DNA of 64,000 bases from Heptranchias perlo (GCF_035084215.1 NC_090337.1:54498001-54562000), one strand, 5' to 3'. Shown: positions 1 through 64,000, numbered from the stretch's first letter. Numbers and translations are program-made. The notes: generated by a model from the letters alone, not told the origin.

Positions 1-2952
1 CAGCCATCAAGGTGAGTCCAATCTCGTGCTCTTTCAACAGGACTCACAGTTTAATTATCAAGTGCTTGAACTCTGGATAATTTTTCCCCTGCCTAACTTA
101 GGGATGCCCAAGGCTGTCCCAGCTGAGATCAGCTCACTCAACTGAGCCAAGGGACAAAGCCTGAGACTCTTCTGGTCTGTATCACTCAACGTCACAATAT
201 GTTGCATTTGTCCATAAAACTAGCCAGGGCAAATATAAAGATTCAGCTGCAATGAAGTCCAAACAGATAAAAAAACAAGGTGCAAATTTAATAACTCATC
301 TTACATATTGACATTTAAGTAAATATCTAATATATTGGAGCACTATTTTCATTTTTATTTATTACCACAGAACATCTTATATATGGCCATGTTTAATTCC
401 TACAGTTTTGTGCATAATCCTCAGTCAGCTGAGGACCTATTAGTGCAAAGCACTGTTTTGCCATGCTAACTTTCTTAGCTAGCACTGCAGGTGTTCAAGA
501 GCGCTTGTATGGCTATCGTGAAAGGATGCGATGGAAACGCTACAAGGGACCAGAGTGGTTTTGAAAGTTAATCCTTTGAAGTACTAAACCATTAGAAAAC
601 TTCTCCCCAACTTCTCAAACAACAATCTATGTATGCTACTTTCACAGCAGTGAAAATAACATCACACACATGAGCCTATCAAATACTGTGCACACTGCTC
701 CAGTAATTTTACAATAACTTGCAAACCACAGAAACTGGTCTTTCGACAGGACATAAATCAAAGTCTGCAAAATACTAACTTCAGTGGAGTTCTTTTCTGT
801 ATCATTAATGTGAAGATGTAAAAAGACTGCTAGTTGATCTCCTGTGGCATTGCTCGCAATCAATAACAATAACATCATTAAGACCAGAAAGCAGATTCAG
901 GACTCCAAAATCTCAAAGTATCTTGATTTGCTCTGTAAGTGGGAAGCTTGGGCATGGGACACTTGAGCAATGAAGTGAGGAAAAACTGAGGCTGGTTTGA
1001 CAGGAAGACAAAGCCGGTGGGGGGGGGGGGGGGGGGCAGGGAGGCTGCAGCCTAGACCGGGGCTACGAGAAATTGGGCATCAAGGCCTAGAGATAGCAGG
1101 AGGCCGGAGTCTGCAGTCACCGCTCGAAAGGAGCAGGGAGGTTGGATCTTGGCTACACGATGAGTTGAGGCAGAAGTGGGGCAATGGGATTGTGGGGGAG
1201 GGGATTGTCTTTGGGAGTCACGTGAGTGATAATACATTAACAAGCATAAGTTAACATGGGCCAAACAGACCTATGGGACACCAAGGACAACCATGGATAA
1301 AATCTTTTTATTTATATAGATAGATACCAAACAATTGCAATCAGTTATAAATCGCTACATAAGCACCCAATAGATCAATAAATATTAAATATTGCAATAC
1401 CTCAAGGACCCAAGTAAACTGAGAGTCAGCATGAGTGTGACTATAACATGGAAAGGATTGAACAATGCAATCTTTTATAGCATTTAAATAATGACCAGTG
1501 TTTACTCTCCACCTGTCTTCAGAGTCAGGCGGGAGCTGAAGTTCTTGGGATGGGTCCTGGTGGATCCGAGCAGATGTGGACTACTCAGGGTGGGACTTCA
1601 GGGAAATTCCACACTCATGAAAAGCAGAAGCAGGTAGAGTGGGAAAAATGCCTAGGTGGGCGGATTAATTCGGAGGGCAGTGGGAAGGAAAAGAGTAACA
1701 ATTGCAGTGGCCGGAACTTGGATGAATTCCCCCAGCAAATGGGTTGCACCATGGTGATGTAGATAATATGGATCAATTGTGGAATCTATTTGGTGGATTC
1801 TAAGCACGTGAAACCATGGACCAATCAGCAACATTAGAGGCTCGCAACAATGTGACAGTCGTACAACGTGAATCACAGACACGAGATAGCTAGCAAGTGT
1901 TGGGAAGCACAAGTTTGATTTGAACTGTAAGAAACGCTTCTTAATTAACTCACTTCTGTGGAATTCATGAAACAAAACTCATTCGCATTCCTTAAATAAG
2001 CCCAATAAAATATGTCCACTGGTTAAATATCGTTCAGAAGTTAAGTTTGACAATTCCATCAACTTATCATGCTCTGCTTCGCAATATGGCACATCAGCAA
2101 TCCAGTTCTGTGCTAAAGGCCAAGCATATCAAGTTTAGCTTTAGACGAAATCAGATCATCCAAAGCAAAATTATAATCCAATTATTTGGGGTTCATCAAC
2201 TGGTTCAGCATTCAACAGCTGAAGCTCAAATCGTCAAAACCCAAAGTACACTGGAACATCCATTGGCCACCATAATAGAGGGGAACCCCTTGGTGGAAAT
2301 TACCAGATAAACAAGAGTCCTCATGGTATAATAATACCCTAAGCACGGGGATAAAGAGTATACAATACAAATAGCAAAAGGAATTTAATCTTTCTTGCGA
2401 TCTGACAGAAAAAGATTAATGTTAATAGGGTGTGCAATGAGTCTAAATTGCCCACAAGGCTTGGGTCATTAGTTGATAATCAGGAATGCAGATAACATAG
2501 GAGCACCAATAATGGAAATGTTTCCATCTGAAGCCCAAGTTCTGCAGTCCAGACAATGTGTACTATTATAACTCTAAACCCTATGAGCTCAAGTCCCATA
2601 CAGTACCCATTCCTCAAACCCGCTCGCGACAAAATTACAAATTTTCAAGTTAATAACGTTCTTTGAATTATACTACATTTTACAATTTCAGAAATGCTTC
2701 CCAACTTATAGTTTTGATACTCGCAGTGTATTTTTTTTTACCTCTCCAGAGCACTCTGAAGAAGCACCTCCAACCTGTCAGGACTGCAGGTTTTCTCCCC
2801 ATGCACATTTATAAAAGCAGCACAGTCTTCTGGAGGAGGCTCCTCTGCTGCAATCTATTAAAAGAGTTGGTATCATTCATATCATCAAAAATAAAAAGTT
2901 ACCAGCTTTCACTGGGACTGAACTCTGCAAAATACATATGCACTGAACTCAC

Positions 2953-3083
2953 CTGCTGAAACATTTGAACAGTGGCAGAGTACGCCCGCAGGGACAAGGC
3001 AAACTTCAGCAGGTTGGCCTGTACAGGGGTCAGTAACTCACCAGCTTGCCGCAGTATATAGTGGTAGTATGAAATATCAGTTT
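2953..3083 (-). CDS. UGGT1: UGGT1 coding exon 4
   Basis: 131-nt exon with acceptor GTGACAG| and donor |GTGAGT. Translates ETDISYYHYILRQAGELLTPVQANLLKFALSLRAYSATVQMFQQ (within ORF 2899..3126). Exon 5 was not found in 1-2950 and probably lies outside the window. Confidence 0.94.
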
Positions 3084-4683
3084 CTGTCACATAAAACAAA
3101 ATAATTACAATGTTGCATCCTTTCATTTCCCCCTCTAAATTTTCTCCCCTTCTTTTCCTGAAGGTATTTATACTTTGCTAGGTAGCATTTCATGGGTGTT
3201 GGTCACCCTCCTTGTCCAAGTGGCCGCTGTTAACGTGTTAGCCTCGTCAGTGAATGTCGAAATGCTATTTGACCATTGAGGATAGGCGAGCCTGGCAATG
3301 TCTTCACCCAAAATCCACACCTGCACTTTAGGATTCGCTGAAGAGCAATTGCGAATGGAAATCTTGGCTCATTTTTCCCTACTCTAAATCTAAGGACTCA
3401 AAACCCAACCAGAGTATCCTTATCACTGTGCCCCACGAATTCAACACAGACTGGCAGTCAAATCTGGGACAAGCCACTCAAGGAATTAACAAGCTGAGCC
3501 ACAAGAGTAGCTACTAGTTTATTATTAAATGGAAAATATGGCCAAAAATAACATATACATTACTCATACATTAGGCTGAACTTTCCTATTTTGTATTCTT
3601 TTGGTAAGAGTATTCTGAGTCTATGAACTATTTCTATTTGCTAAGAATTCTGGGTAAGTTATCTGAAACACAGAGGTGCTTGCACCAGAAGAGGCCCAAG
3701 TAAAAAGATTAAGTGCCCACTGAAGGAGGCAAATACTTTAACTGTCATCTCAGTCACTTACAACTATTTTCTCTTCACCAGTTGGGACTTTAGAATAGCC
3801 ATCAGCCATAGCGGTAAAGTACTGTTACTCTGCGATACTGATTTTTATAATTGTTTAAAGGGTTTGATGGCATATGGATAATTCAAATATTCTGTCCGTA
3901 CATACTAAGACCCATCCCCACGTTATCAGATCAGAGCCATTGCTCCTAAACAAATCCCTGTTGAATAACCTGTTGTTCTGTTCTGTGTCAGACCCTGGTA
4001 TCTTAGACACGTATCAGACATTGGCTGTATTGTTCCCGATCCACCGTTATGCTCCCTGCGGCGTTCTAATTATTTTTCCAGCAAATTGTGGTGTGACTTC
4101 GCCACTGGACGATCGGGAGGCACAATGGTCTAACTTATAGTGTTCGTCATCAATAATCGCTACTGCAGCAAATTCCGTATCTAGTCAGGTATAGGAATGT
4201 AACAACCAGTCGAGTCTTATGTTAACAATCTACAGTGAACCACAAGGCTGCCGGATAAACTACCTGAGCACTAGTCTTTGTTATTCTTTCTACGTGGTTC
4301 AACCTCCACAGACAAATAAACAGTGTAATTCAAACAGGAGAAAATCCTCTAGCACACTATGCCTTTAAGAGTCTAACGTCATTCTGAAGAAATGTAAATG
4401 ACGTCATCTTCCCCCATTCTTACCATATTTCAGGCCTCAATTTGGACAAGTACCACAAATTGTTACAGGAGCTTTGTGGTATCCTCTGCCCACAATGTCT
4501 GACAAGATAACAGAAGATATGGAGAAGGATGGAACACAAGACCAATTTAACATTGAATTCTTAACAGGGACAGTGTGTTTCTCCCCAACTCCACCCCACA
4601 TGTAAGGTTGTACGTGGAGGTTTAAATGAATGAGGAACGTGATCGTCAATCCTGCCACATGTCTGCAATGAAGTCATCTCTAC

Positions 4684-4766
4684 CTTCATGATCCTCCGGA
4701 TGGCTTTCTTGAGCGGCATCCACAAAATCCCAGAATTTAGCTTTGCTTTCTTCAGCCAAAAATTCA
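4684..4766 (-). CDS. UGGT1: UGGT1 coding exon 3
   Basis: 83-nt exon with acceptor CATTGCAG| and donor |GTAGAG. Translates EFLAEESKAKFWDFVDAAQESHPEDHE; phases fit exons 2 and 4. Confidence 0.93.
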
Positions 4767-5440
4767 CTGCAATGAGGAATGCAAAAAAGAAATTCTCTAA
4801 TTTACTTATTTCTGTAACAATGTATCAAATCATTATTTCACAGTTAACAGAAAGTTAAGTTGAAGTAATTAGAAATGACCTTGCTGATGTGTTTAACTGA
4901 CAAATGCTTCCATCAGTTATCCAGCAATCACATCTCACTACAAACTACAGCAACTTGCTTGGGCTAGAAGAACCCATTGGTGCTGCTTCCATTCCACTTG
5001 CTTGCGCAGACTTTGGTCTGTAATGGAGATGCTGCATTAATATAGCAACAATCCATTATCATTGACCTGTTTACATGGAAGATTCTGCACTTAATGACTT
5101 TATCCACAAGGGTACCCAACAATGTGATTAATTTACAATAGATACTTTAGGCGCAGAACACAAATTGCAACATAGAACTCCCAGAGTGGAGGAAAGAAAA
5201 AAGCAGCCGATTCTCCAATCTTGTGAAAGAAAACACAAGGTGAAAACCTTTTTTTCTTTTAGGACCTTAATTATACTGACCTCTGGTGCTCAGAATTCAA
5301 GACAAGTGTGACTCTGTCTCAGTGACTCAATGAGGAAAATTTCATTGAAAATAATCAGGCCAGTGCCACCGGCCCCATAAAAACCGTGTTGCTGCCTCAG
5401 AGCACACTGTGCAGCAACTCGACAAAGCCCTCCTCCCCCA

Positions 5441-5696
5441 TCAAATCCCACCATGGCAAGTTGTGAAACTGAACTCAAGTAATTTGTGGGCTATCACCAG
5501 AAAATTATCATGAAAGTTGCCAGATTGTCATACAAACCTAACCAGTTCACTAATGCTCTGCATGTAAAGGAACCTGCCACCCCTACATGTGACTCCAGTC
5601 CCACATTACATGGTTGACTCTTAAATGCCCTCGGGGCAACCAAGACTGGGCAATAAATACTGCCTTGCCAATGTCACCCAAATCCTAAGAATAAAT
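5441..5696 (+). mobile_element. Decayed SINE made of the 5' region and 3' tail of the 59-62 kb LINE, without the ORF
   Basis: TCAAATCCCACCATGGCA...GTTCACTAATG...ATGTGACTCCAGTCCCACA...TGGTTGACTCTTAAATGCCCTC matches the LINE 5' region. It runs directly into GGGGCAA...TGGGCAATAAATACTGCCTTGCCAATGTCACCCAAATCC, which matches the LINE 3' tail. Confidence 0.8.
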
Positions 5697-6189
5697 CAAC
5701 AGAAAATGAGTGTTAGGATGAAAAACTATAACCAAAGTTTATTAGATGACTTTGTATTTGCAGCAGGAGTAAAGGTCAAAACCATGGAACTCCTTTTTCC
5801 TACAATCTAAATGCGTCCAGATCCCAAGCTTGACATCACCTATCATTACAATCTACTCCTGATACTCTGAAGTTGCTTAATTCAAAAGGATCTTAAAAGG
5901 GCTATTGTGCCATTTTAATGCAATTGCTTAATTAGAGTTATTGGATAATTCAAACTTTGAGATCCAAAAATTACAGAATTATCAGGCACAGACTCGAAGT
6001 GCAGATTTATCTCTTCTCTTTACAAACACGGTGGTGTCCTGCATCACGAGCTTTGGATTCCCAGTTATTAAAAATTGATACACACAGTTCAACGTAGGGA
6101 ACAAGGAAATAAGGAAAGAGGTGAAGAAAAGGATGAGGAAAGCAAGGAGGGAATAGGAAGAGAGAATCTCAAAAAACTATTCAGAAGAG

Positions 6190-8438: not shown

Positions 8439-9039
8439 AGTGCATTCTCCACACAACATGACCCCACCCATTCATCATCTCGTACACATCCCCCTCACAG
8501 AAGAGTTTGAACATCGCTGCTTCAGTGAACCAGAACAAGAAAAGCATCACTCATAACCCTTAAATCAGACTTCCAGACTTATGCAAGAACAGAAGAACTA
8601 TTGCAAATGCACCTCCGCATTTCAGTGTCAATCCAAAAACGTGAGATAGAATATGAATGCAGAACCTCCCACTTCGCTTCTACTACCTGTGCAACTCTCT
8701 CCCAGACACTTGCACTGCCTGGAGCTCTGTCCCTTTTAAAGATTATTAACCATCACCAGCTGAACCAGGGTTGTTGGGACCAGAACTAGACTGTGAGAAA
8801 TCTCTACCTTGCCCAATGGTATCCCAGTAAAATTTTATCCTATCCTTTGTGCTTCCAGCAATCATCAGGATCACATTTGAGAGATGAGACTGTCCCTAGC
8901 TGCCTCCAATTGATTTCCAATCTGATGTACAAAAAAAGAAAACTTATGGAACAAACAGCTAGTTAACACAGTGAATGCAAACTAAGTCAAAGCATTCAAA
9001 TGAAAGGGATAATTTGCCAATTAAAGAGGTGACACGTTT

Positions 9040-10726
9040 GTTGGTTTTTGTACTGGTGTTGTAATTTGCACTGTGTTTTGTAATTTGCACTATGTTTTGT
9101 AATTCACACTGTTTTGTACCGGTGCTGTAATTTGCACTGTGTTGTGTACCGGTGTTTTAATTTGCACTGTTGTTTTAATTCGCACTGTGTTGTAATGTGC
9201 ACTGTGTTTTGTACTGGTGTTTTAATGTGCACTGTGTTTGTACCTGTTTTGTAATTTGCACCATGTTTTGCACCTGTTTTCTAATTTGCACTGAGTTGTG
9301 TACTGGTGTCGTAATTTGCACTGTGTTTTGTACCTGTTTTGTAATTTGCAGTGTTGTGTACCGGTGTTGTAATGTGCACTGTGTTTTGTACCGGTTTTGT
9401 AATTTGCACTGTGTTTAGGACCGGTTTTGTAATTTGCACTGTGTTTAGGACCGGTTTTGTAATTTGCACTGTGTTTTGTACCAGTTTTGTAATTTGCACT
9501 GTGTTTTGTACCAGTTTTGTAATTTGCACTGTGTTTTGTACCAGTTTTGTCATTTGCACTGTGTTTTGTACCAGTGTTTTAATTTGCACGGTTTTGTGCT
9601 GGTGTTTTAATTTGCACTGTGTTCTGTAATTTGCACTGTGTTTTGTAACAATGTTTTAATCTGCCCTGTGTTCTGCACCGGTGCTGTAATTCGCACTGTG
9701 TTGTGTACCGGTGTTGTAATTCGCACTGTGTTTTGTAACTTGCACTGTGTTTTGTACCAGTGTTTTAATTTACACTGTGTTGTGTAATTTGCCCTGTGTT
9801 TTGTACCGATGTTTTAATCTGCCCTGTGTTTTGCACCGGTGTTGCAATTTGAACTGTGTTTAGTACCTGTGTTGTAATTTGCACTGTGTTGTGTACCGGT
9901 GTTTTGTAATTTGCACTGTGTGGTGTACCGGTGTTTTGTAATTTGCACTGTGTGGTGTACCGGTGTTTTGTAATTTGCACTGTGTTGTGTACCGATGTTT
10001 TGTAATTTGCACTATGTTGTGTACCAATGTTTTGTAATTTGCACTATGTTTTGTACTGGTGTTTTAATTTGCACGGTGTTGTGTAATTTGCACTGTGTCT
10101 TGTACCGATGTTTTAATCTGCCCTGTGTTTTGCACCGGTGCTGTAATTCGCACTGTGTTGTATAGTGGTGTTTTAATTTGCACTGTATTTTGTACTGGTG
10201 TTTTAATTTGCACCGTGTTGTGTAATGGTGTTGTAATTTGCACCATGTTTTGTACCTGTGTGGTGTAATGTGCACTGTGTTGTGTACCTGTGTGGTGTAA
10301 TGTGCACCGTGTTGTGTACCTGTGTGGTGTAATGTGTACCTGTGTGGTGTAATGTGCACCGTGTTGTGTACCTGTGTTGTGTACCTGTGTGGTGTAATGT
10401 GCACCGTGTTGTGTACCTGTGTGGTGTAATGTGCACCGTGTTGTGTACCTGTGTGGTGTAATGTGCACCGTGTTGTGTACCTGTGTGGTGTAATGTGCTG
10501 GTGTAATGTGCACCGTGTGGTGTAATGTGCACCGTGTTGTGTACCTGTGTGGTGTAATGTGCACCGTGTTGTGTACCTGTGTGGTGTAATGTGCACCGTG
10601 TTGTGTACCTGTGTGGTGTAATGTGCTGGTGTAATGTGTACCTGTGTGGTGTAATGTGCTGGTGTAATGTGTACCTGTGTGGTGTAATGTGCTGGTGTAA
10701 TGTGCACCGTGTGGTGTAATGTGCTG
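9040..10726. repeat. ~1.7-kb GT-rich minisatellite (30-33-bp unit) in UGGT1 intron 1
   Basis: Unit GTTTTGTAATTTGCACTGTGTTTTGTACCG grades into GTGTGGTGTAATGTGCACCGTGTTGTGTACCT. Confidence 0.97.
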
Positions 10727-11340
10727 GTCCGGGCGCGGGCCCGGGCTGGAGTGGGGAGCTCGAGCCCTCCAGCTTCCTCTCTCTCTCCTCCAATCACGGC
10801 CCTCGGCGTGTCTCCACCGCCGCGCAACCAACCCTGGAAAGCCCCGACCGCGGGGCCCGCCCTCGCCTCACGCTGATTGGTCAAATCCCACTGGCACACC
10901 ACCTGATTGGACAACCGCGCTGTCAATCATTGCTCCCAAGTTAGGTTGGCTCCCCTCAGTATTTCCCCCCCTTTTTAATAATTATTAATAACCGGGGGGG
11001 TCCGAGCTCGACAATAACCGGGAGCCGCCGCCACCGCCGCCGCCGCCGGTTTAACGGTGAACAACCGGCCCGTTTAACACAGGTCAGGAAACGATAGCGG
11101 AATCCAGTAACAGCGCGGCCAAAACCAGGCCGCCCCGCAACCTCCCGCTCCGCACAACAGAGCAGCGGGAAAGGCCCGCGTCACTGCGGGAAAGGCCGGG
11201 GCCGCCGCCGATGCCGATGCCGATGCCGCTCTCGGTTCGCTCCTCTCACTCACCAGAGCCGGCGAACCAGAGCGCTGCCATCTTGGGAGTCCAGAGCAAC
11301 CCCACGGACCCAGGGGCTGGCCCCGCTTATCCCCGAATAA
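10727..11340 (-). promoter_or_regulatory. CpG island around UGGT1 exon 1
   Basis: Abrupt GC- and CpG-rich block with (GCC)n tracts. CCAAT boxes at 10790-10794 (+), 10876-10880 (-) and 10906-10910 (-). CAAGATGGCAGC at the start codon resembles a YY1/TISU-type motif. Confidence 0.8.
11254..11281 (-). CDS. UGGT1: UGGT1 coding exon 1 (start codon; MAALWFAGS)
   Basis: Minus strand reads CCCAAG ATG GCA GCG CTC TGG TTC GCC GGC TCT G|GTGAGT inside a CpG island. The phase-1 donor joins exon 2 in frame to give a signal-peptide-like N-terminus, MAALWFAGSVKNYNTGILATLAVVYLSFSVVNA-DSK. Confidence 0.75.
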
Positions 11341-23923: not shown

Positions 23924-25944
23924 GGGCCCGATATTACCAGGGCGGCGGGGGGGCGGGGGGGGGGGGGCGATTGGTGAAATCAGTCTGCACTGCGTGCAAT
24001 CGCAGGCTGATTGGATCCACTTACCTCTTATTCCGGGTTCCCCGCTGCTGATCTGCGTGTCGGGCGGACTGCGCATGCGCAGTAAGGTCTGTCAGCTGGA
24101 GGAGCTCAATTTAAAGGGGCAGTCCTCCACTGACTGATGCTGCAAGAAATAGGAAAAATTACAGCATGGAGCAGCCCAGGGGAAGACTGCTCCCAGGTTT
24201 AATGATGCCTCACTCCAGCTCTTATTGGATGGGGTGAGGAGGAGGGGGAGAACAGAGATCTTCCCCCCGGCGGGCGGGAGGAAGTGGCCTGTCTCCGCCA
24301 CCAAGAAGGCCTGGCTCGAGGAGGCAGAGGAGGTCACCTGCACCACCAACATATCGCCCACCTGCATACAGTGCAGGAGGCGCTGCAATGACCTAAGTAG
24401 GTCAGCCAAAGTGAGTACACTTACTCATTCCCCTACACTCCGTCTGCCACATCACCGCCCCCACCCCACATCTCCTTCTGCACTGCCAACACTACTCTGT
24501 CACATCACCCCTCACACCCACTCAAAGCTCATCCTCATCTTACCTGCACTTACTCACCTCGCCAGTACTCATCCCGCCACTACCACTCAACCCAATCCTC
24601 ATACAATCTCATGGCTCTATCTCATACTCACCCTCTCGTGCATCTCTTTCACAGTCAGCCTCACTCAACCTGCCACTACCTGTGCTGCAGCCACAGGGCA
24701 TGCATCACATATGTGCAGCAGACAGCGTAAGGCAAACGTGTCGTGAGCATGAAGGGGATGCACAAGGGTGTTTGAGGGTTTGTCATGGTTTTTACTTATA
24801 TTTCATTTCTGATCAACTCACATTACATATTATATTGGCACCACTACTGCCATGTCTTTGCAAATCTTGTCTGGTTTGTGCAATAATGCCCTTTCCTGAG
24901 GATCATAATGAAGACCCACACCTGATGCCACCCATTGTGTCACTGCAGAGTGGTGTAGGTGTATTTGCAGGGCTCTTTTGTGCAGACGACTGAGAGACGT
25001 CAGCGATGTCCCCGGTGGCACCCTGGAAGGATGTGGAGGAGAAGTTGTTGAGGGCAATGGTGACTTTGACAGCGACAGGTAAGAAGATGGTGCTCGGGCC
25101 AACCGGGAGCAGCTCGGCATGAAGGAGGCTGCAGATGTCCACGACTACATGTCGAGTGACTCTGAGCCTCCGTGTGCACTGCTGCTCAGAGAGGTCCAGG
25201 AAGCTGAGCCTCGGTCTGTGGACCCTGTGGCGAGGGTAGTGCCCTCTGCGACGCATCTCTCTCTGCGGTTGCCCTCCCTCCTGCTGTGCAGGTGGATGTG
25301 TCACAACACTGTGTTGTGGAGCTCCACGTGTCAGCGGTGGACGGTGTGGCTGGCGAGGCTGTTCGCCCTCCGAGGAGGTCATGACTGCGGCTACGGCGAC
25401 CCCCATCTGGAAGATGTACATCTGAGGGGTCCGCAAGGTAGGTACATGTGTCTGGACACTGGGGTAAGTGTGCAAGTTGGTGAATTTAATTGTTAGGAGG
25501 AGGGTGGTGGAGGCCAAGCTTTGTCCAAAGTGACAGAGTGGCCTCCTGCAATGAGTGAAGGTCTCCCCGCCCCACCTGTCAAATGGACCTTTGCAGCTGC
25601 CACAGGCTGATGGCTGCAACACGACCATTTGAACTGGGAGTGTTTCCCCCAGTACCGGAAACAGTCCCAGTTGTTTGTAAAATACCAACCCTCCTAAAAT
25701 ATCTCATTAATCAGGTCTGTAAACGTCCTGAAATACCAAAATAAATACCTTAAGTGGCACCACGCCGGCTTGAATTGCCGGCGGGAGTCCCACATGCGGG
25801 GGCTGCGCACGCATTTCAGCGCGTCTGTGGGAAACCCGGAAGTGGGCGGGTCGGAGCCGGGCTCCTGACCCGCCCCGGGAATCCCCGATTTTCGTGGCCC
25901 CCCCATCAGGAACGCACCCGATCGCGGGTGCTAAAATCGACCCC
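23924..25944 (+). mobile_element. Non-autonomous Harbinger (internal-deletion derivative), copy 1
   Basis: Imperfect TIRs GGGCCCGATATTACCA / TGCTAAAATCGACCCC; 3-bp TSD AAA at 23921-23923 and 25945-25947. Retains Myb exon 1 and the 5' part of the transposase. Confidence 0.92.
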
Positions 25945-26591
25945 AAAGTGTCTGCAAAGAGATATTGAGAGGTTAAGTGAATGGGCAAAAATTTGGCAGA
26001 TGGAATATAATGTGGGAAAATGTGAAGTCATCCACTTTGCGAGGAAAAATAAAAAAGCAAAATATTATTTGAATGGAGAAATACTACAAAATGCTGTGGT
26101 ACAGAGGGATCTGGGTGTCCTCATACATGAAACACATAAAGTTAACACACAGGTGCAGCAGGTAATCCGGAAGGCAAACAGAATATTGGCCTTTATTTCT
26201 AGGGGGATGGAGTATAAAAGCAGGGAAGTCATGCTACAACTGTACAGGGTGCTGGTGAGACCACACTTGGAGTACAGCGTACAGTTCTGGTGCCCTTATT
26301 TAAGGAAGGACATACTTGCATTGGAGGCAGTTCAGAGAAGGTTCACTAGGTTGATTCCGGTATGGAAGGGTTGTCTTATGAGGAAAGATTGAACAGGTTG
26401 GGTCCATACTCATTGGAGTTTAGAAGAATGAGAGGATGTTATTCCCTCATGGGGGAATCTAAAACTAGGGGGCATAGTCTCAGAATAAGGGGTCGCCCGT
26501 TTAAGACGGAAATGAGGAGGAATTTCTTCTCCCAGAGGGTCGTGAATTTTTGGAATTCTTTACCCCAAACAGCTGTAGAGGCTGAGTCATT

Positions 26592-28642
26592 GGGCATCAT
26601 TTTAGCACCCGCTATCGAGTGCGTTCCTGGCGGGGGGGCTCCGAAAATCGGAGAATCCCGGAGTGGGTTGGGAGCCCGACTCCAACCCGCCCACTTCCGG
26701 ATTCCCCACTGACACGCCGGCGTGCGCGTGCAGCCCCCGCTGGTGGGAATCCCACGGGCAATTAAAGCCAGCGGGATGCCACTTGAAGCTATTTATTTTG
26801 CTTGTTCAGGTCATTAACTGACCTGATTAAGGGATTATGTGAGGAGGGGTGGGATTTTATAGCAAACTGGGACTGTTTCCCATACTGGGGGAAACACTCC
26901 CAGTTGAAATGGACGTGTTGCAGCTGTCAGCCTGTGGCAGTTGCAAAAGTCCATTTGACAGGTGGGTGGGGGGAGACCCTCACTCATTGCAGGAGGCCAC
27001 TCTGTCACTTGGGACAAAGTTTGGCCTCCACCACCCTCCTCCTGACAATCAAAGTCACCAACTTGCACACTTACCCCGGGATCCAGAGACATGTACCTAC
27101 CTTGCGGACTCCCTCAGATGTACATCTTCCAGATGGGGGCCGCCATAGCTGCAGTCATGACCTCCTCGGAGGGCGGAGGGCGAACAGCATCACCAGCCTC
27201 GCCATCCACGCCGTCCACCTCTGACACGTGGAGCTCCATAACACAGTGCTGTGACACATCCACCTGTACAGCAGGAGGGCTACCGCAGAGAGAGATGCAT
27301 CGCACAGGGCACTGCCCTCACCACAGGGTCCACAGACCGAGGCTTAGCTTCTTGGACCTCTCTGAGCAGCAGTGCACACGGAGGCTCAGAGTCACTCGAC
27401 ATGCAGTCGTGGACATCTGCAGCCTCCATCATGCCAAGCTGCTCCTGGCTGGCCCAAGAACCATCTTCTTACCTGTCGCTGTCAAAGTCACCACTGCCCT
27501 CAACAACTTCTCCTCCGTATCCTTCCAGGGTGCAACCGGGGACATCGCCGATGTCTCTCAGCCGTCTGCACATAAGAGCCCTGCAAATACACCTACACCC
27601 ACTCTGCAGTGACACAATGGGTGGCATCAGTTGTGGGTCTTCATAGTGATCCTCAGGAAAGGGCATTATTGCACAAACCAGACAAGATTCGCAAAGACAT
27701 GGCAGTAGTGGTGCCAATATAATATGTAATGTGAGTTGGTCAGAAATTAAATATAAGTAACAACCATGACAAACCCTCAAACACCTTTGTGCATCCCCTT
27801 CATGCTCACGACACGTTTGCCTTATGCTGCCTAATGCACATATGTGATGCATGACCTGTGGCTGCAGCACAGGTAGTGGCAGGTTGAGTGAGGCTGACTG
27901 TGAAAGAGATGCACGAGAGGGTGAGTATGAGATAGAGCCATGAGATTGTATGAGGATTGGGTTGAGTGGTAGTGGCGGGATGAGTACTGGCGAGGTGAGT
28001 AAGTGCAGGTAAGATGAGGATGAGCTTTGAGTGGGTGTGATGGGTGATGTGACAGAGTCGTGTTGGCGGTGCCGAAGGAGATGTGGGGTGGGGGTGGTGA
28101 TGTGGCAGATGGAGTGTAGGGGAATGAGTAAGTGTGCTCACTTTGGCTGACCTACTGAGGTCATAGGAGCGCCTCCTGCACTGTATGCAGGTGGGCGATA
28201 TGTTGGTGGTGCAGGTGACCTCCTCTGCCACCTCAAGCCAGGCCTTCTTGGTGGCAGAGGCAGGCCGCTTCCTCCCGCCCGCCGGGGGGAAGATCTCTGT
28301 CCTCCCCCTCCCCCCATGTATTGATACCTGGAGTGAGGCATCATTAAAATGGGAGCAGCCTTCCCCCTGGGCTGCTCAATGCTGTAATTTTTGCTATTTG
28401 TTGCAGCATCTGTCAGTGGAGGACTGCCCCTTTAAATAGAGCTCCTTCAGCTGACAGATCTTACTGCGCATGCGCAGCCCGCCCAACGCGCAGGTCAGCA
28501 GTGGGGAACCCGGAAGACCAGGTAAGTGGATCCAATTGGGCTGCGATCGCGCGGGTGGCTGACTAATTTCACCGGGCGCTTTACCCATGTGCCCGATAGC
28601 CCCCCCCCGCCGCGAACCCGCAGCCCTGGTAACATCGAGCAC
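26592..28642 (-). mobile_element. Non-autonomous Harbinger, copy 2 (inverted relative to copy 1)
   Basis: Termini GGGCATCATTTTAGCA / TGGTAACATCGAGCAC; 3-bp TSD ATT at 26589-26591 and 28643-28645. Its ORF-track peptides mirror those of copy 1 on the opposite strand. Confidence 0.92.
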
Positions 28643-57924: not shown

Positions 57925-58875
57925 TTTACCAGAAAGATACCAGGGATGAGAGACTTCAGTTATGTGGAGAGACTGGAGAAGCTGGGATTGTTCTCCCTAG
58001 AACAGAGAAGCTTAAGGGGAGATTTAATAGGTGTTCAAAATTATGAGGGGTTTTGATAAAGTAAATAAGGAGAAACTGTTTCCACTGGCAGGAGAGTCAG
58101 TAACCAAAGGACACAGATTTGAGGTAATTGGCTAAAGAACCGGAGGGAAGATGAGGAGACATTTTTTTACGCAGTGAGTTGTTATGATCTGGAATGCACT
58201 GCCTGAAAGGGTGGTGGAAGCAGATTCAATGTAACTTTCAAAAGGGAATTGGATATAAAATTGAAAAGAAACAATTTGCAGAGTTATGGGGAAAGAGCAG
58301 GGGAGTGGAACTAATTCGAGAGCTCTTTCAAAGAGCTGACATAAGCAAGACGGGCTTGAATGGCCTCCTTCTGTGCTGTATGATTTTATGAACTAGGTGA
58401 AGGAGTCTCAGTATTGACTATGAAATGTGTTTCTCACTACATGCATTCTCTCTATTAAAACTGAAGTCTATTAAAAGTAAGAGATCACATCAGCTCTCCA
58501 TTATAGTGTATTTAATGTTAAAAGGATTTGATAAGGTAGATACGGAGAAACTATTTCTTCTGGTGGGGGAAATCAAGATCAAAGGGACATAAATTTAAAA
58601 TCGGAGATAGGCCAGTCACGAGTGAAATCTTGAAGTACCTTTTCCACACAAAGGGGAGTAGAAATCTCAAACTCTCTTCTCTCCCCATCCGCCCCTCCCC
58701 TGCCCCCGCAAAAGGCTGTGAATGCTGGGACAATTGGAGCTTTCACAACTGAGATCTATAGATTTTTGTTAGGTAAGGTTATCAAGGGATGTGGAGCAAA
58801 GGTAGGTAAATGAGTTGAGGTGCTAATTGAATGGCGGAACAGGCTCGAGGGGCTGAACGGCCTATTCCTGTTTCT
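57925..58875 (+). mobile_element. Two adjacent CR1 3' fragments (57925-58390, 58515-58875)
   Basis: FTRKIPGMRDFSYVERLEKLGLFSLEQRSLRGDL and CR1-type tails. Confidence 0.82.
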
Positions 58876-59302
58876 AATGTAGAATTACCAATACTGTGTA
58901 GAAAAATTAACATAGAAAAATTCAATATCATGAGTTGCCATGTGAAAGACCCAGCTAAAGTACGGTCCTCAGTCATCAAGGTTGTGTTGCAGGCTTTAAG
59001 TGAGCCACTTTAGTGGTACACACACAGTTATGTGCCCTGACACCAACTTTCGTGCCAATATCTCGATTTTTTTATCCATCCATGGCATGGAGCAAGGGTG
59101 AAAAAGCTTTGTGATTGCCATCATGATCAAATGTCTACATGTACTAAGAGCAAAAAATATAGGGAGTCCACGTAATGCTGAATAATATTTTAGTGTCGAG
59201 TGTCGGTGTGCAAGTGCACGCCTAGGATTTAAAAAAATTTTTTTTATTATTCGTTCACGGGATGTGGGCGTCGCTGGCAATGCCGGCATTTATTGCCCAT
59301 CC

Positions 59303-62209
59303 CTAATTGCCCTCGAGAAGGTGGTGGTGAGCCGCCTTCTTGAACCGCTGCAGTCCGTGTGGTGACGGTTCTCCCACAGTGCTGTTAGGAAGGGAGTTCC
59401 AGGATTTTGACCCAGCGACAATGAAGGAACGGCGATATATTTCCAAGTCGAGATGGTGTGTGACTTGGAGGGGAACGTGCAGGTGGTGTCGTTCCCATGC
59501 GCCTGCTGCCCTTGTCCTTCTAGGTGGTAGAGGTCGCGGGTTTGGGAGGTGCTGTTGAAGAAGCCTTGGCGAGTTGCTGCAGTGCATCCTGTGGATGGTG
59601 CACACTGCAGCCACAGTGCGCCGGTGGTGAAGGGAGTGAATGTTTAGGGTGGTGGATGGGGTGCCAATCAAGCGGGCTGCTTTATCTTGGATGGTGTCAA
59701 GCTTCTTGAGTGTTGTTGGAGCTGCACTCATCCAGGCAAGTGGAGAGTATTCCATCACACTCCTGACTTGTGCCTTGTAGATGGTGGAAAGGCTTTGGGG
59801 AGTCAGGAGGTGAGTCACTCACCGCAGAATACCCAGCCTCTGACCTGCTCTTGTAGCCACAGTATTTATATGGCTGGTCCAGTTAAGTTTCTGGTCAATG
59901 GTGACCCCCAGGATGTTGATGGTGGGGGATTCGGCGATGGTAATGCCGTTGAATGTCAAGGGGAGGTGGTTAGACTCTCTCTTGTTGGAGATGGTCATTG
60001 CCTGGCACTTATCTGGCGCGAATGTTACTTGCCACTTATCAGCCCAAGCCTGGATGTTGTCCAGGTCTTGCTGCATGCAGGCTCGGACTGCTTCATTATT
60101 TGAGGGGTTGCGAATGGAACTGAACACTGTGCAGTCATCAGCGAACATCCCCATTTCTGACCTTATGATGGAGGGAAGGTCATTGATGAAGCAGCTGAAG
60201 ATGGTTGGGCCAAGGACACTGCCCTGAGGAACTCCTGCAGCAATGCCCTGGGGCTGAGATGATTGGCCTCCAACAACCACTACCATCTTCCTTTGTGCTA
60301 GGTATGACTCCAGCCACTGGAGAGTTTTCCCCCTGATTCCCATTGACTTCAATTTTACTAGGGCTCCTTGGTGCCACACTCGGTCAAATGCTGCCTTGAT
60401 GTCAAGGGCAGTCACTCTCACCTCACCTCTGGAATTCAGCTCTTTTGTCCATGTTTGGACCAAGGCTGTAATGAGGTCTGGAGCCGAGTGGTCCTGGCGG
60501 AACCCAAACTGAGCATCGGTGAGCAGGTTATTGGTGAGTCAGTGCCGCTTGATAGCACTGTCGACGACACCTTCCATCACTTTGCTGATGATTGAGAGTA
60601 GACTGATGGGGCGGTAATTGGCCGGATTGGATTTGTCCTGCTTTTTGTGGACAGGACATACCTGGGCAATTTTCCACATTGTCGGGTGGATGCCAATGTT
60701 GTAGCTGTACTGGAACAGCTTGGCTAGAGGCGCAGCTAGTTCTGGAGCACAAGTCTTCAGCACTACAGCTGGGATGTTGTCAGGGCCCATAGCCTTTGCT
60801 GTATCCAGTGCACTCAGCCGTTTCTTGATATCACGTGGAGTGAATCGAATTGGCCGAAGACTGGCTTCCGTGATGGTGGGGATATCGGGAGGAGGCTGAG
60901 ATGGATTATCCACTCGGCACTTCTGGCTGAAGATGGTTGCAAACGCTTCAGCCTTGTCTTTTGCACTCACGTGCTGGACTCCGCCATCATTGAGGATGGG
61001 GATGTTTGCAGAGCCTCCTCCTCCCGTTAGTTGTTTAATTGTCCACCACCATTCACGACTGGATGTGGCAGGACTGCAGAGCTTTGATCTGATCCGTTGG
61101 TTGTGGAATCGCTTAGCTCTGTCTATAGCATGTTGCTTCCGCTGTTTAGCATGCATGTAGTCCTGAGTTGTAGCTTCACCAGGTTGGCACCTCATTTTTA
61201 GGTACGCCTGGTGCTGCTCCTGGCATGCTCTTCTACACTCCTCATTGAACCAGGGTTGATCCCCTGGCTTGTTGGTAATGGTAGAGTGAGGAATATGCCG
61301 GGCCATGAGGTTACAGATTGTGCTGCAATACAATTCTGCTGCTGCTGATGGCCCACAGCGCCTCATGGATGCCCAGTTTTGAGCTGCTAGATCTGTTCTG
61401 AATCTATCCCATTTAGCACGGTGGTAGTGCCACACAACACGTTGGATGGTGTCCTCAGTGCGAAGACGGGATTTCATCTCCACGAGGACTGTGCGGTGGT
61501 CACTCCTACCAATACTGTCATGGACAGATGCATTTGCGACAGGTAGATTGGTGAGGACGAGGTCAAGTAAGTTTTTCCCTCGTGTTGGTTCGCTCACCAC
61601 CTGCCGCAGGCCCAGTCTAGCAGCTATGTCCTTCAGGACTCGGCCAGCTCGGTCAGTGGTGGTGCTACCGAGCCACTCTTGGTGATGGACATTGAAGTCC
61701 CCCACCCAGAGTACATTTTGTGCCCTTGCTACCCTCAGTGCTTCCTCCAAGTGGTGTTCAACATGGAGGAGGACTGATTCATCAGCTGAGGGAGGACGGT
61801 AGGTGGTAATCAGCAGGAGGTTTCCTTGCCCATGTTTGATCTGATGCCATGAGATTTCATGGGGTCCAGAGTCAATGTTGAGGACTCCCAGGGCCACTCC
61901 CTCCTGACTGTATATCACTGTACCGCCACCTCTGGTGGGTCTGTCCTGCCGGTGGGACAGGACATACCCAGGGATGGTGATGGAAGAGCCTGGGACGTTG
62001 GCTGAAAGATATGATTCTGTGAGTATGGCTATGTCAGGCTGTTGCTTGACTAGTCTGTGGGACAGCTCTCCCAATTTTGGCACAAGTCCCCAGATGTTGG
62101 TAAGGAGGACCTTGCAGGGTCGACTGGGCTTGGTGTTTTGCCGTTGTCGTGTCCGATGCCGGGTGGTCCGTCCGGTTTTGTTCTTATTATGACTTTTCGT
62201 AGCGAGATT
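59303..62209 (-). pseudogene. APE-RT ORF (~968 codons) of the above element; two in-frame TGA stops, no frameshift
   Basis: ORF-track pieces 60539..62083, 59819..60463 and 59303..59818 are all in the same frame. They are separated by TGA at 60539-60541 (KRH*LTNN) and TGA at 59819-59821 (ILR*VTH, likely CGA>TGA). Confidence 0.9.
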
Positions 62210-62495
62210 TTACAACTGAGTGGCTTGCTCGGCCATTTCAGAGGGCAATTAAGAATCAACCACATTGCTGTGGGTCTGGAGTCACATATGGGCCAGACCG
62301 GGTAAGGGCGGCAGGCTTCCTACCCTAAAGGACATGAGTGAACCAGATGGGTTTTTACGACAATCCGGTAGTTTCATGGCCATCATTACTGATACTAGTA
62401 TTTTAATTCCAGATTTTTATTTAATGAATTGAATTTTAATTAATTAATTGAATTTTAATTAATTAATTGAATTTAAATTCGCCAGCTGCCGTGGC

Positions 62496-62579
62496 GGGAT
62501 TTGAACTCATGACTCTGGATTTTAGTCTAGGCCTCTGGATTACTAGTCCAGTAACATAACCACTATGCTACCATTCCCA
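62496..62579 (-). promoter_or_regulatory. tRNA-derived internal Pol III (type 2) promoter at the 5' end of the LINE
   Basis: A box TAGCATAGTGG; anticodon-arm-like CTGGA-CTAGTAA-TCCAG followed by a partial duplicate CTAGACTAAAATCCAG; B box GAGTTCAAATCCC. Confidence 0.8.
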
Positions 62580-64000
62580 GTACCAATGGTTGACGCTTAT
62601 AGAGCAGGCTACTGGGTATGTACAGAAGCTAATGCTGCTATATCTGCATTTAGTGATTACATTATCTGAGACAATTGAACATCTTCCTATAATTTTCAAG
62701 ACTGAGATTTTTGTTACATTAGGATATCAAGGGATATGGAGCAAAGGCGGGAAAATGGAGTTGAGGTACAGATCAACCATGATCTGACTGAATGGCGAAA
62801 CAGGTTCATGAGGCTGAATGGCCTACTCCTGGTTCCTAAACAATTTCTCACTTCCAAGCCAAAAAATCACAGATACAAAAATGCTCTGAGTGCGTGGGGT
62901 TAATCTCTGAATGCTGCTGAGAACACTAAGAATTGCCTCAATTTCATTAAGAAATATGACACAGTCGTGACATTTTATAAAAAATATAAAGCTGGTAATG
63001 CCAACAGAGACAGGTTACTGGCATATGGTGCACAGTTTGATTTACGCTAGTGAAAGGTTATAAGTGTCAAACTAATTCTACAAGGGTTGCTATTGGCGTC
63101 ATTCCCCATCTCCTTGCAAGCACCCCTCTCCCCCCACCCCACCACCCAAATACTTAGTAAATTTAAAGATTGGTGATTGACAGATTATTGGTGCTCACGT
63201 CATTCCCCCCTTCCACCCTGAAGACAACAACTGCTGATGGGGGACACAGTTCCACATCCATTGGCAGTCACCCAATAAATTGGTCAAGTGGTCATTCTTC
63301 AATCCTGAGCCTGGACAATGAGCACTGGGAGCCTGTTTGACAGTTGGGGGGGGTATCACAATCAAACTTGATCCTGTTCCCACCTGACATCCAAACACAC
63401 ACACTTTCCAGTGGAGGTTGCCAAGTTGTTATCAGAAGCAGGAACCCTGGCTGGTTTCCCACCTCTCCAGACTTGGGAGCACGATGCGAAATGTAGCACC
63501 CTGTTATGGTCAGTTAACTCAGACCAGGGATAAAACCTGCAATCCTCCTAAACTCCATGGCTTTGCATGACACCAGTTGGCACACCTACCCTCTTGAGCC
63601 ATAAAGCAACGACAATGGCAGGTTCGAAGAACAGTCATGTGTTTTGTTACTCAGGATTATCTCTTCCAGCAGCAATGGCTGAGGTGGAATGTACTGGTTT
63701 TCATCCAAAGCCACCTAACCAGAAAATATCACTGACGCATTAAATTAAACTATTTTTAAAAAGTGCTCGAAGGCCTGAGCCAACGCTGCTCTGTAACTGC
63801 CCACAGGAAATATTGAAGTGCAGCCTGAGCATCCCCTAATACTTCAGCTGCATACATCGAGTCGTACAGACCAAAAGGCATCAGGTTGCATTGCTGAGTT
63901 GGTGCACCCCAGTTGGATACAGCAGGGGGTGGGTCAGTTGACTTGGGCATTGCTGGGGAAGGAGAAAACAAATATCAGCCAGGGTCCCTGCTCCTTTCAG

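Follow-up and report, generated by a model that had tools for sequence, protein, structure and literature searches.

The stretch analysed here, referred to as the window, comprises 64,000 nucleotides (nt) of the Heptranchias perlo genome (GCF_035084215.1 NC_090337.1:54498001-54562000). Its minus strand carries, at 59238..62578, a full-length 3.3-kb copy of the elasmobranch Zenon long interspersed nuclear element (LINE), which opens with a tRNA-derived head and runs into one open reading frame (ORF) for an apurinic-type endonuclease (APE) and a reverse transcriptase (RT). LINEs are taken to be coding elements made by RNA polymerase II (Pol II), and SINEs (short interspersed nuclear elements) to be non-coding and made by Pol III. 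An original prediction, made from the window's sequence alone, had proposed that this copy is a protein-coding, self-mobilising, SINE-like element whose coding sequence is selected against Pol III terminators.

Organisation of the element

Colinear copies elsewhere in the genome are 95-98% alike with unrelated flanks, and place the 5′ end of the family at 62578, one base inward of the end first assigned (62579). The head (62485..62578; this and all further features of the element are on the minus strand) is related to tRNA-Thr(AGT) and has an insertion in the variable region. Its A box (62560..62570) matches the Pol III consensus TRGCNNARYGG, and its B box (62496..62508) is a Pol III B box with the core GWTCRANNC. 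Among 64 aligned copies no A-box variant is common to three or more, and the sole shared B-box variant falls on the last base, outside the core. An anticodon-like arm (stem 62551-62547/62539-62535, loop 62546-62540) lies between the boxes. The tRNA-Thr(AGT) genes of H. perlo were located by pattern search; the head of one Zenon copy (L209) aligned with one of them across both boxes, starting at base 1 (z 5.5, 300 shuffles), and four heads of an old SINE described below gave z 3.8-5.4. ARAGORN and Rfam (E ≤ 1), run on 58000-64000, called no tRNA, ribozyme or internal ribosome entry site (IRES), leaving the head uncalled, and no HDV-like ribozyme was found by eye in the element body.

Downstream of the head are an A/T-rich tract (62400..62480), in which a short inverted repeat varies in copy number and no run of four T (T4) occurs, a conserved body (62241..62394) and a predicted hairpin (62216..62241). 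The APE-RT frame follows at 59303..62209, with 968 codons at 62209-59306 and no ORF1 ahead of it, as had been predicted. Pfam placed the endonuclease domain at 61487..62098 (PF03372, PF14529) and the RT domain, whose start is approximate, at 59897..60680 (PF00078). The length and domains thus agreed with the original description, in which two TGA stops of this copy (60541-60539 and 59821-59819) had gone unmentioned; the frame is open in other copies. A predicted stem-loop at 59259..59303 includes an AATAAA (59294-59289) and is likely the recognition site of the RT. A second AATAAA and an A8 tail occupy 59238..59248, and a T7 run lies directly behind the tail (59237-59231). The boxes, the arm, the AATAAA and the T7 were all found where they had been reported. 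On the sense strand the 3342-nt element holds no T4 or longer run, seven T3 and 23 A4+ runs, close to the earlier manual count of no T4, about seven TTT and about twenty A4+. The longest T4-free stretch of the window, both strands considered, is 3514 bp long and contains this copy.

Identity and relatives

By sequence match the element belongs to a family already described, the elasmobranch Zenon LINE reported by Stuart et al. 2026 (PMC13343379), which the original prediction had not recognised. The parts of that source consulted report Zenon in five elasmobranchs (CarCar, HypSab, RhiTyp, ScyCan and SquAca) as undeposited elements of ~3.3 kb with APE and RT, a poly-A tail and no ORF1; the present copy shows no difference in kind. 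Comparison by eye of the first 400 nt showed body and ORF start to be near-identical to the published elasmobranch consensuses, all seven of which (five species) put the head first and have no T4 over that length. Both boxes and their spacing are kept across sharks and one ray. If inheritance was vertical, the head in the consensuses of all five shark and ray species would date it to at least the shark-ray ancestor. That ancestor is roughly 250-300 million years old. By contrast, two hagfish consensuses and one coelacanth consensus (CR1-5_LCh) have no tRNA head in the 400 nt compared and contain T4+ there. The single ORF and poly-A tail are common to Zenons of hagfish, coelacanth, Lepidoptera and bivalves. 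Bivalve Zenons donate tails to tRNA-SINEs, according to the portion of PMC11481361 consulted, and for the butterfly element Persaeus, a Zenon-derived deletion element keeping the Zenon 5′ untranslated region, the corresponding portion of PMC6740152 reports no tRNA homology or Pol III promoter.

The main text of PMC13343379 contains no mention of tRNA, polymerase III or promoter, and the head, the scarcity of T-runs and the missing AUG appear to be unremarked there. A literature search, largely of open-access papers and with Repbase Reports outside its coverage, turned up no coding LINE described as headed or as made by Pol III; the architecture is apparently unremarked within this known family.

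In an RT tree of 38 rows, none of them a named Zenon reference, the element grouped (98/90) with 12 single-ORF relatives and apart from the CR1 elements of its own genome, to which its RT is 28-35% identical. Canonical CR1 clusters with vertebrate CR1 and either has an esterase ORF1 or is related to elements that do; the element therefore lies outside it, and its lack of ORF1, single APE-RT frame, poly-A tail and identity to the elasmobranch consensuses over the first 400 nt are those of Zenon. Assignment to a Daphne clade was dropped after the match to published Zenon. The closest full-length proteins are 39-40% identical, and fragments 74-82% identical lie inside gene models of three named sharks.

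Headed relatives were also sought outside sharks and rays. No A/B-box pair was detected by pattern near 64 metagenome and 77 genome-contig ORFs, many of which had no upstream DNA; no tRNA was found in 40 loci, and viral contigs likewise gave nothing. Loci with short ORFs (16/80 and 3/80) were removed from the distant-relative rows, as was L342, which is not an RT frame. Three of the distant relatives lie in prokaryote-labelled contigs (L345 at 4001-6034, L325 and L296), have T4 counts of 1 vs 8.8, 4 vs 11.9 and 6 vs 13.9 expected and showed no head; these contigs are likely host contamination. In many genome-collection bins (L279-L358) there are APE-RT retrotransposons of eukaryotic type, and several of these lie on very long contigs, which points to host DNA in the bins.

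Full-length copies in the genome begin at the head

Own-genome DNA searches gave 2115-4028 first-look candidates, with 40 scored each; these figures are not copy numbers. The 38 stretches around head-plus-ORF matches were colinear with the window copy through to the A-tail. Copies were additionally chosen blind to the head, using an ORF DNA query and a 36%-identical foreign protein query, which together yielded 57 distinct copies. Their 5′ starts fell at head positions 1-3 in 26/57 and within 15 nt in 34/57, while 23/57 were shorter 5′ truncations with starts scattered over positions 58-476. Full-length copies thus begin at the tRNA head, as the original prediction had supposed, and most copies do not lack it. 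When selection was by the head only, 26/29 copies ran on into the endonuclease. ORF-chosen copies have unrelated sequence upstream, in which neither an alternative 5′ end nor an ORF1 was present. The window copy has no target-site duplication; across the family, duplication was at chance level in 36/38 copies, with two outliers of 16 and 20 nt.

Truncations cluster ~210-230 nt into the element (~62325-62350; L073, L076, L082, L092, L096, L098, L213 and L224), perhaps at an RT pause at structure in the body. Three copies (L034, L057, L064) have an inverted piece of their own 5′ region directly upstream of the head, which suggests fold-back or template switching upon insertion.

Many copies hold open 973-codon frames, and 37/49 top matches to the foreign protein query have no internal stop. 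In the alignment of 64 copies (5/68 with large gaps were excluded) the mean distance from the column majority is 1.1%. Singletons have a non-CpG pN/pS of 0.64, as against 0.20-0.26 among variants found in at least three copies, and the four shared indels in the frame past the conserved GCT codon discussed below (−15, +3, −9 and −3) are each a multiple of three. The Zenon family of this genome is autonomous, abundant and young, and the variants that copies share show purifying selection on its protein. When a 72%-identical fragment was used to look for older LINE subfamilies, most matches belonged to this young family.

These results bear on whether the head is a chance SINE-LINE juxtaposition or the whole a passively amplified dead chimera. 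The two stops of the window copy and the related SINE in the genome would fit such an origin, which is refuted by the copy survey: the colinear copies, the stop-free matches, the purifying selection, the head in the elasmobranch consensuses and the 34/57 head starts reduce its probability to almost nothing. The autonomous LINE has the head as its own conserved 5′ end, an integral part and not a chance neighbour.

A related non-coding SINE

An old SINE of ~330 bp, with copies 75-80% alike, has the head, body (62241..62394) and tail of the Zenon LINE and neither hairpin nor ORF. One copy lies at window 5440-5700 on the plus strand, and 4703 first-look candidates were returned from the genome. 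An 11-nt arm of the LINE (62251-62241) is perfectly complementary to 59314-59304, and no other 10-mer of the first 400 nt matches the last 110 nt in this way; the resulting 10-11 bp stem would enclose the whole ORF, and both arms, in one of two main forms, are present in 52/64 copies. The old SINE joins body to tail exactly at the arm 62241..62251, and contigs of runs X1, X6 and X12 show other body-to-tail joints near this one. On the simplest reading of these joints, headed SINEs are likely internal deletions of the headed LINE; the alternative is that the ORF was captured by a SINE.

Like tRNA SINEs (SINE2, including bipartite forms), as described in the sections of Kojima 2018 consulted (PMC5786205), Zenon starts exactly with a tRNA-related head containing A and B boxes, followed by a conserved body and a LINE-type tail. 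SINE2 elements are short, non-coding and non-autonomous, whereas Zenon is 3.3 kb long and encodes a protein under purifying selection. The model given there has the head joining a LINE that had already undergone deletion; in Zenon the head sits on the coding LINE itself.

Scarcity of T-runs in the coding frame

Against synonymous-codon shuffles, TTT was depleted in 4/4 open copies tested (5-6 vs ~12 expected, P 0.001-0.01; for example 5 vs 12.1, P ~0.003), and A3, C3 and G3 were at expectation in the same shuffles. Windows with four T in five were also scarce when pooled (3 vs 10 expected, P ~0.035). The absence of T4 was significant in base shuffles (P 0.01). As a control, 57 same-genome CR1 ORF pieces (39.5 kb) were analysed after removal of 19/76 as own-family, antisense or low-complexity. 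These pieces contain 2.66 T4 per kb and show no TTT depletion (541 runs vs 552 expected), with 13.7 TTT per kb vs 2.1 in Zenon and a TTT:TTC codon ratio of 310:209 vs 3:16. Among distant relatives, 64 ORFs carry 2-54 T4 each with TTT at ≥0.77 of expectation, and a further 77 carry 1-41 each; of all these, none is T4-free or drops under ~0.77 of the expected TTT. Within the family, T5 occurs once inside the element, tail aside, in one copy of 64.

We consider it fairly probable, given the boxes and these counts, that the tRNA head is a Pol III promoter giving a protein-coding 3.3-kb RNA. Several observations weigh against this. At 3.3 kb the RNA would be very long by the standards of Pol III. 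The T content of 19% accounts for much of the scarcity of T-runs, and T4 alone was not significantly depleted in synonymous shuffles (0 vs ~2, P 0.08-0.10); no individual non-canonical terminator motif was significantly depleted either. Depletion of T4 is partly generic, being seen in the CR1 pieces (105 vs 145 expected) and in the relatives L345 (1 vs 8.8) and L280 (1 vs 3.9), the latter having few TT dinucleotides as well. In addition, 4/64 copies with private variants in common form a true sub-lineage marked by a T4 that is synonymous (window-equivalent 60126), and TCTTT, a weak non-canonical Pol III terminator, is present at 62009-62005 (62005..62009) in ~42/64 copies, the window copy included. 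For B2 transcripts in human cells, the results of PMC8466645 consulted give termination of 65% at TTTT, of 50% at TCTTT and of nearly 100% with an additional T, so that the motifs in these copies would be leaky but costly stops.

A depletion greater than in the controls, as the original claim of selection against Pol III terminators would require, is thus seen chiefly for TTT and not for T4 alone (P ~0.09), and leaky terminators are tolerated. No T4 is carried by a majority of copies, and the wider description as a coding, self-mobilising SINE-like element stands as regards head, APE-RT coding and autonomy.

A rival explanation assigns the coding RNA to Pol II, starting at the same 5′ end, with the head captured from a SINE and kept for chromatin opening or start setting, aided by TFIIIC, and with T-runs scarce through low U content or because pyrimidine tracts or other U-rich signals are avoided. 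In general, LINEs are made by Pol II (PMC5786205, in the part consulted), the consulted part of PMC8223928 cites Pol III promoters that Pol II uses, and the poly(A) tail and AATAAA suit an mRNA. Tolerance of leaky terminators also fits, as does L280, a headless-looking relative (~40 nt upstream examined) with 20% T and only one T4. This rival does not readily account for a depletion specific to TTT among the four triplet runs, for the TTT density of same-genome CR1, presumed to be a Pol II product, or for the persistence of boxes and spacing in the published consensuses of sharks and a ray. We regard transcription by Pol II as possible but somewhat unlikely.

Terminators behind the tail

TTTT occurs in or at the tail in only 4/38 full-length copies, the T7 being specific to the window copy. 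The first TTTT downstream of the tail is otherwise a few to several hundred bases away, and 2/38 have none in the flank read. The trait of T+ SINEs, a terminator between AATAAA and A-tail, is absent in most copies. The suggestion of AAUAAA-directed polyadenylation as in such SINEs, with a terminator after the tail, was thus not supported as a trait of the family.

Translation of a frame without a usable AUG

The first 355 nt contain nine AUGs, yet no Met occurs in frame until residue 247, past the endonuclease. This lack of an AUG, the chief difficulty for the mechanism, had gone unnoticed in the original prediction. Cap-scanning therefore cannot make the endonuclease, and one objection to an uncapped Pol III RNA is removed; a cap would be of no help to a Pol II transcript, as there is no usable AUG.

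The hairpin at 62216..62241, predicted from the fold and compared in 109 distinct copies, presents a seven-nt anticodon-like loop with a central AGC (62229-62227) kept in 104/109, while the preceding base varies freely. It holds an AUG (62236-62234) whose frame is closed by UAG in 71/109 copies, 68 of which have the commonest loop, and in every case by UAA (62212-62210) ahead of the APE-RT frame. A start by read-through of AUG-GCC-UAG was ruled out by a second in-frame stop in the window copy and in Squalus and by the whale-shark consensus, in which, by eye, the AUG frame is broken and that of a conserved in-frame GCT codon intact.

This GCT (62201..62203) is a candidate frame-setting point for non-AUG initiation. 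The Arg/Lys-rich leader is kept in frame (−15 and +3 indels), and the distance from GCT to the endonuclease frame, measured by eye in the published consensuses, is a multiple of three in 4/5 species (18, 18, 18 and 15 nt). In the Squalus consensus it is one nt short, which either counts against a start at this codon or is a consensus error. From the leader and the distances, a non-AUG codon near 62203 is the likely start of translation. The arrangement suggests cap-independent initiation from the conserved GCU behind the anticodon-like hairpin, whose loop AGC could pair with it. The complementarity is kept in five species and the H. perlo genome, and is uninformative because it is invariant.

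The arrangement resembles pseudoknot I (PKI) of the dicistrovirus intergenic region (IGR) IRES, as set out in the part of PMC3517527 consulted: in Zenon, a hairpin with an anticodon-like loop precedes a complementary in-frame codon by 11-12 nt, closing a ~190-nt conserved region ahead of an AUG-less frame. It differs in having 3-4 possible pairs vs five and a linker of 11-12 nt vs 6-10, and there was no Rfam match (E ≤ 1), no covariation was seen and PKII/III were not identified. We treat the PKI-like hairpin as a lead, by analogy, with stop-restart after a short upstream frame as the main rival for the start. The full composite, in which Zenon would be a coding SINE since the shark-ray ancestor, made as a 3.3-kb Pol III transcript and started at a non-AUG codon by an IGR-IRES-like pseudoknot mimicking tRNA-mRNA pairing, is unlikely to hold in every part. 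A 2013 review, in the portion consulted, notes that the position at which ORF2 begins would have to be reconsidered if such elements had IGR-type IRESs (PMC3894237).

Protein and template RNA might also have separate sources, Pol III making the template while capped read-through transcripts of the host, entering the frame by splicing or scanning, supply the protein in trans. Thousands of candidate genomic places (which are not copy numbers) and the fragments in shark gene models would give host-driven transcripts, and the non-autonomous headed SINEs show that trans-mobilisation works. Against this, purifying selection on shared variants demands a protein acting mostly on its own RNA, and the frame is kept upstream of the endonuclease; such a division appears quite improbable.

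Other repeats in the window

Just upstream of the head, 62690-62860 is a different abundant repeat with high contig depth that looks like a CR1-type 3′ end. Two related ~2 kb repeats in opposite orientation (24000-25790 and 26590-28560) flank a CR1 3′ fragment (25945-26590); similar text in the flanks of two Zenon-search loci (L080, L092) marks them as a dispersed repeat. A long degenerate tandem array of ACAC/AAAC-rich units on the minus strand (8990-10720) explains the second-longest T4-free stretch of the window, and a GC-rich, promoter-like stretch (10700-11300) adjoins it.

Proposed mechanism and implications

If the head acts as a Pol III promoter, TFIIIC would bind the A and B boxes, and Pol III would start at GGG, cross the ORF past leaky stops only and end where genomic DNA behind the tail has its first T-run. 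Translation of the 3.3-kb RNA, which would have no cap, would begin internally at a non-AUG codon, with body and hairpin recruiting ribosomes. Its protein would bind the 3′ stem-loop and prime reverse transcription on the A-tail. Translatable RNA from Pol III has been demonstrated with reporters, in a source (PMC8223928) whose consulted part also says that Pol III makes no coding RNA in normal biology.

A long-lived and recently active LINE with a SINE head breaks the division between LINEs and SINEs and offers a route to SINEs by simple deletion. As open copies exist, the family provides a test case for whether there is a natural Pol III mRNA and for how AUG-less frames of non-LTR (long terminal repeat) elements are translated. 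If true, Pol III transcription together with IRES-driven initiation would make this one element both a natural Pol III messenger RNA and a carrier of a non-viral, factorless-type IRES.

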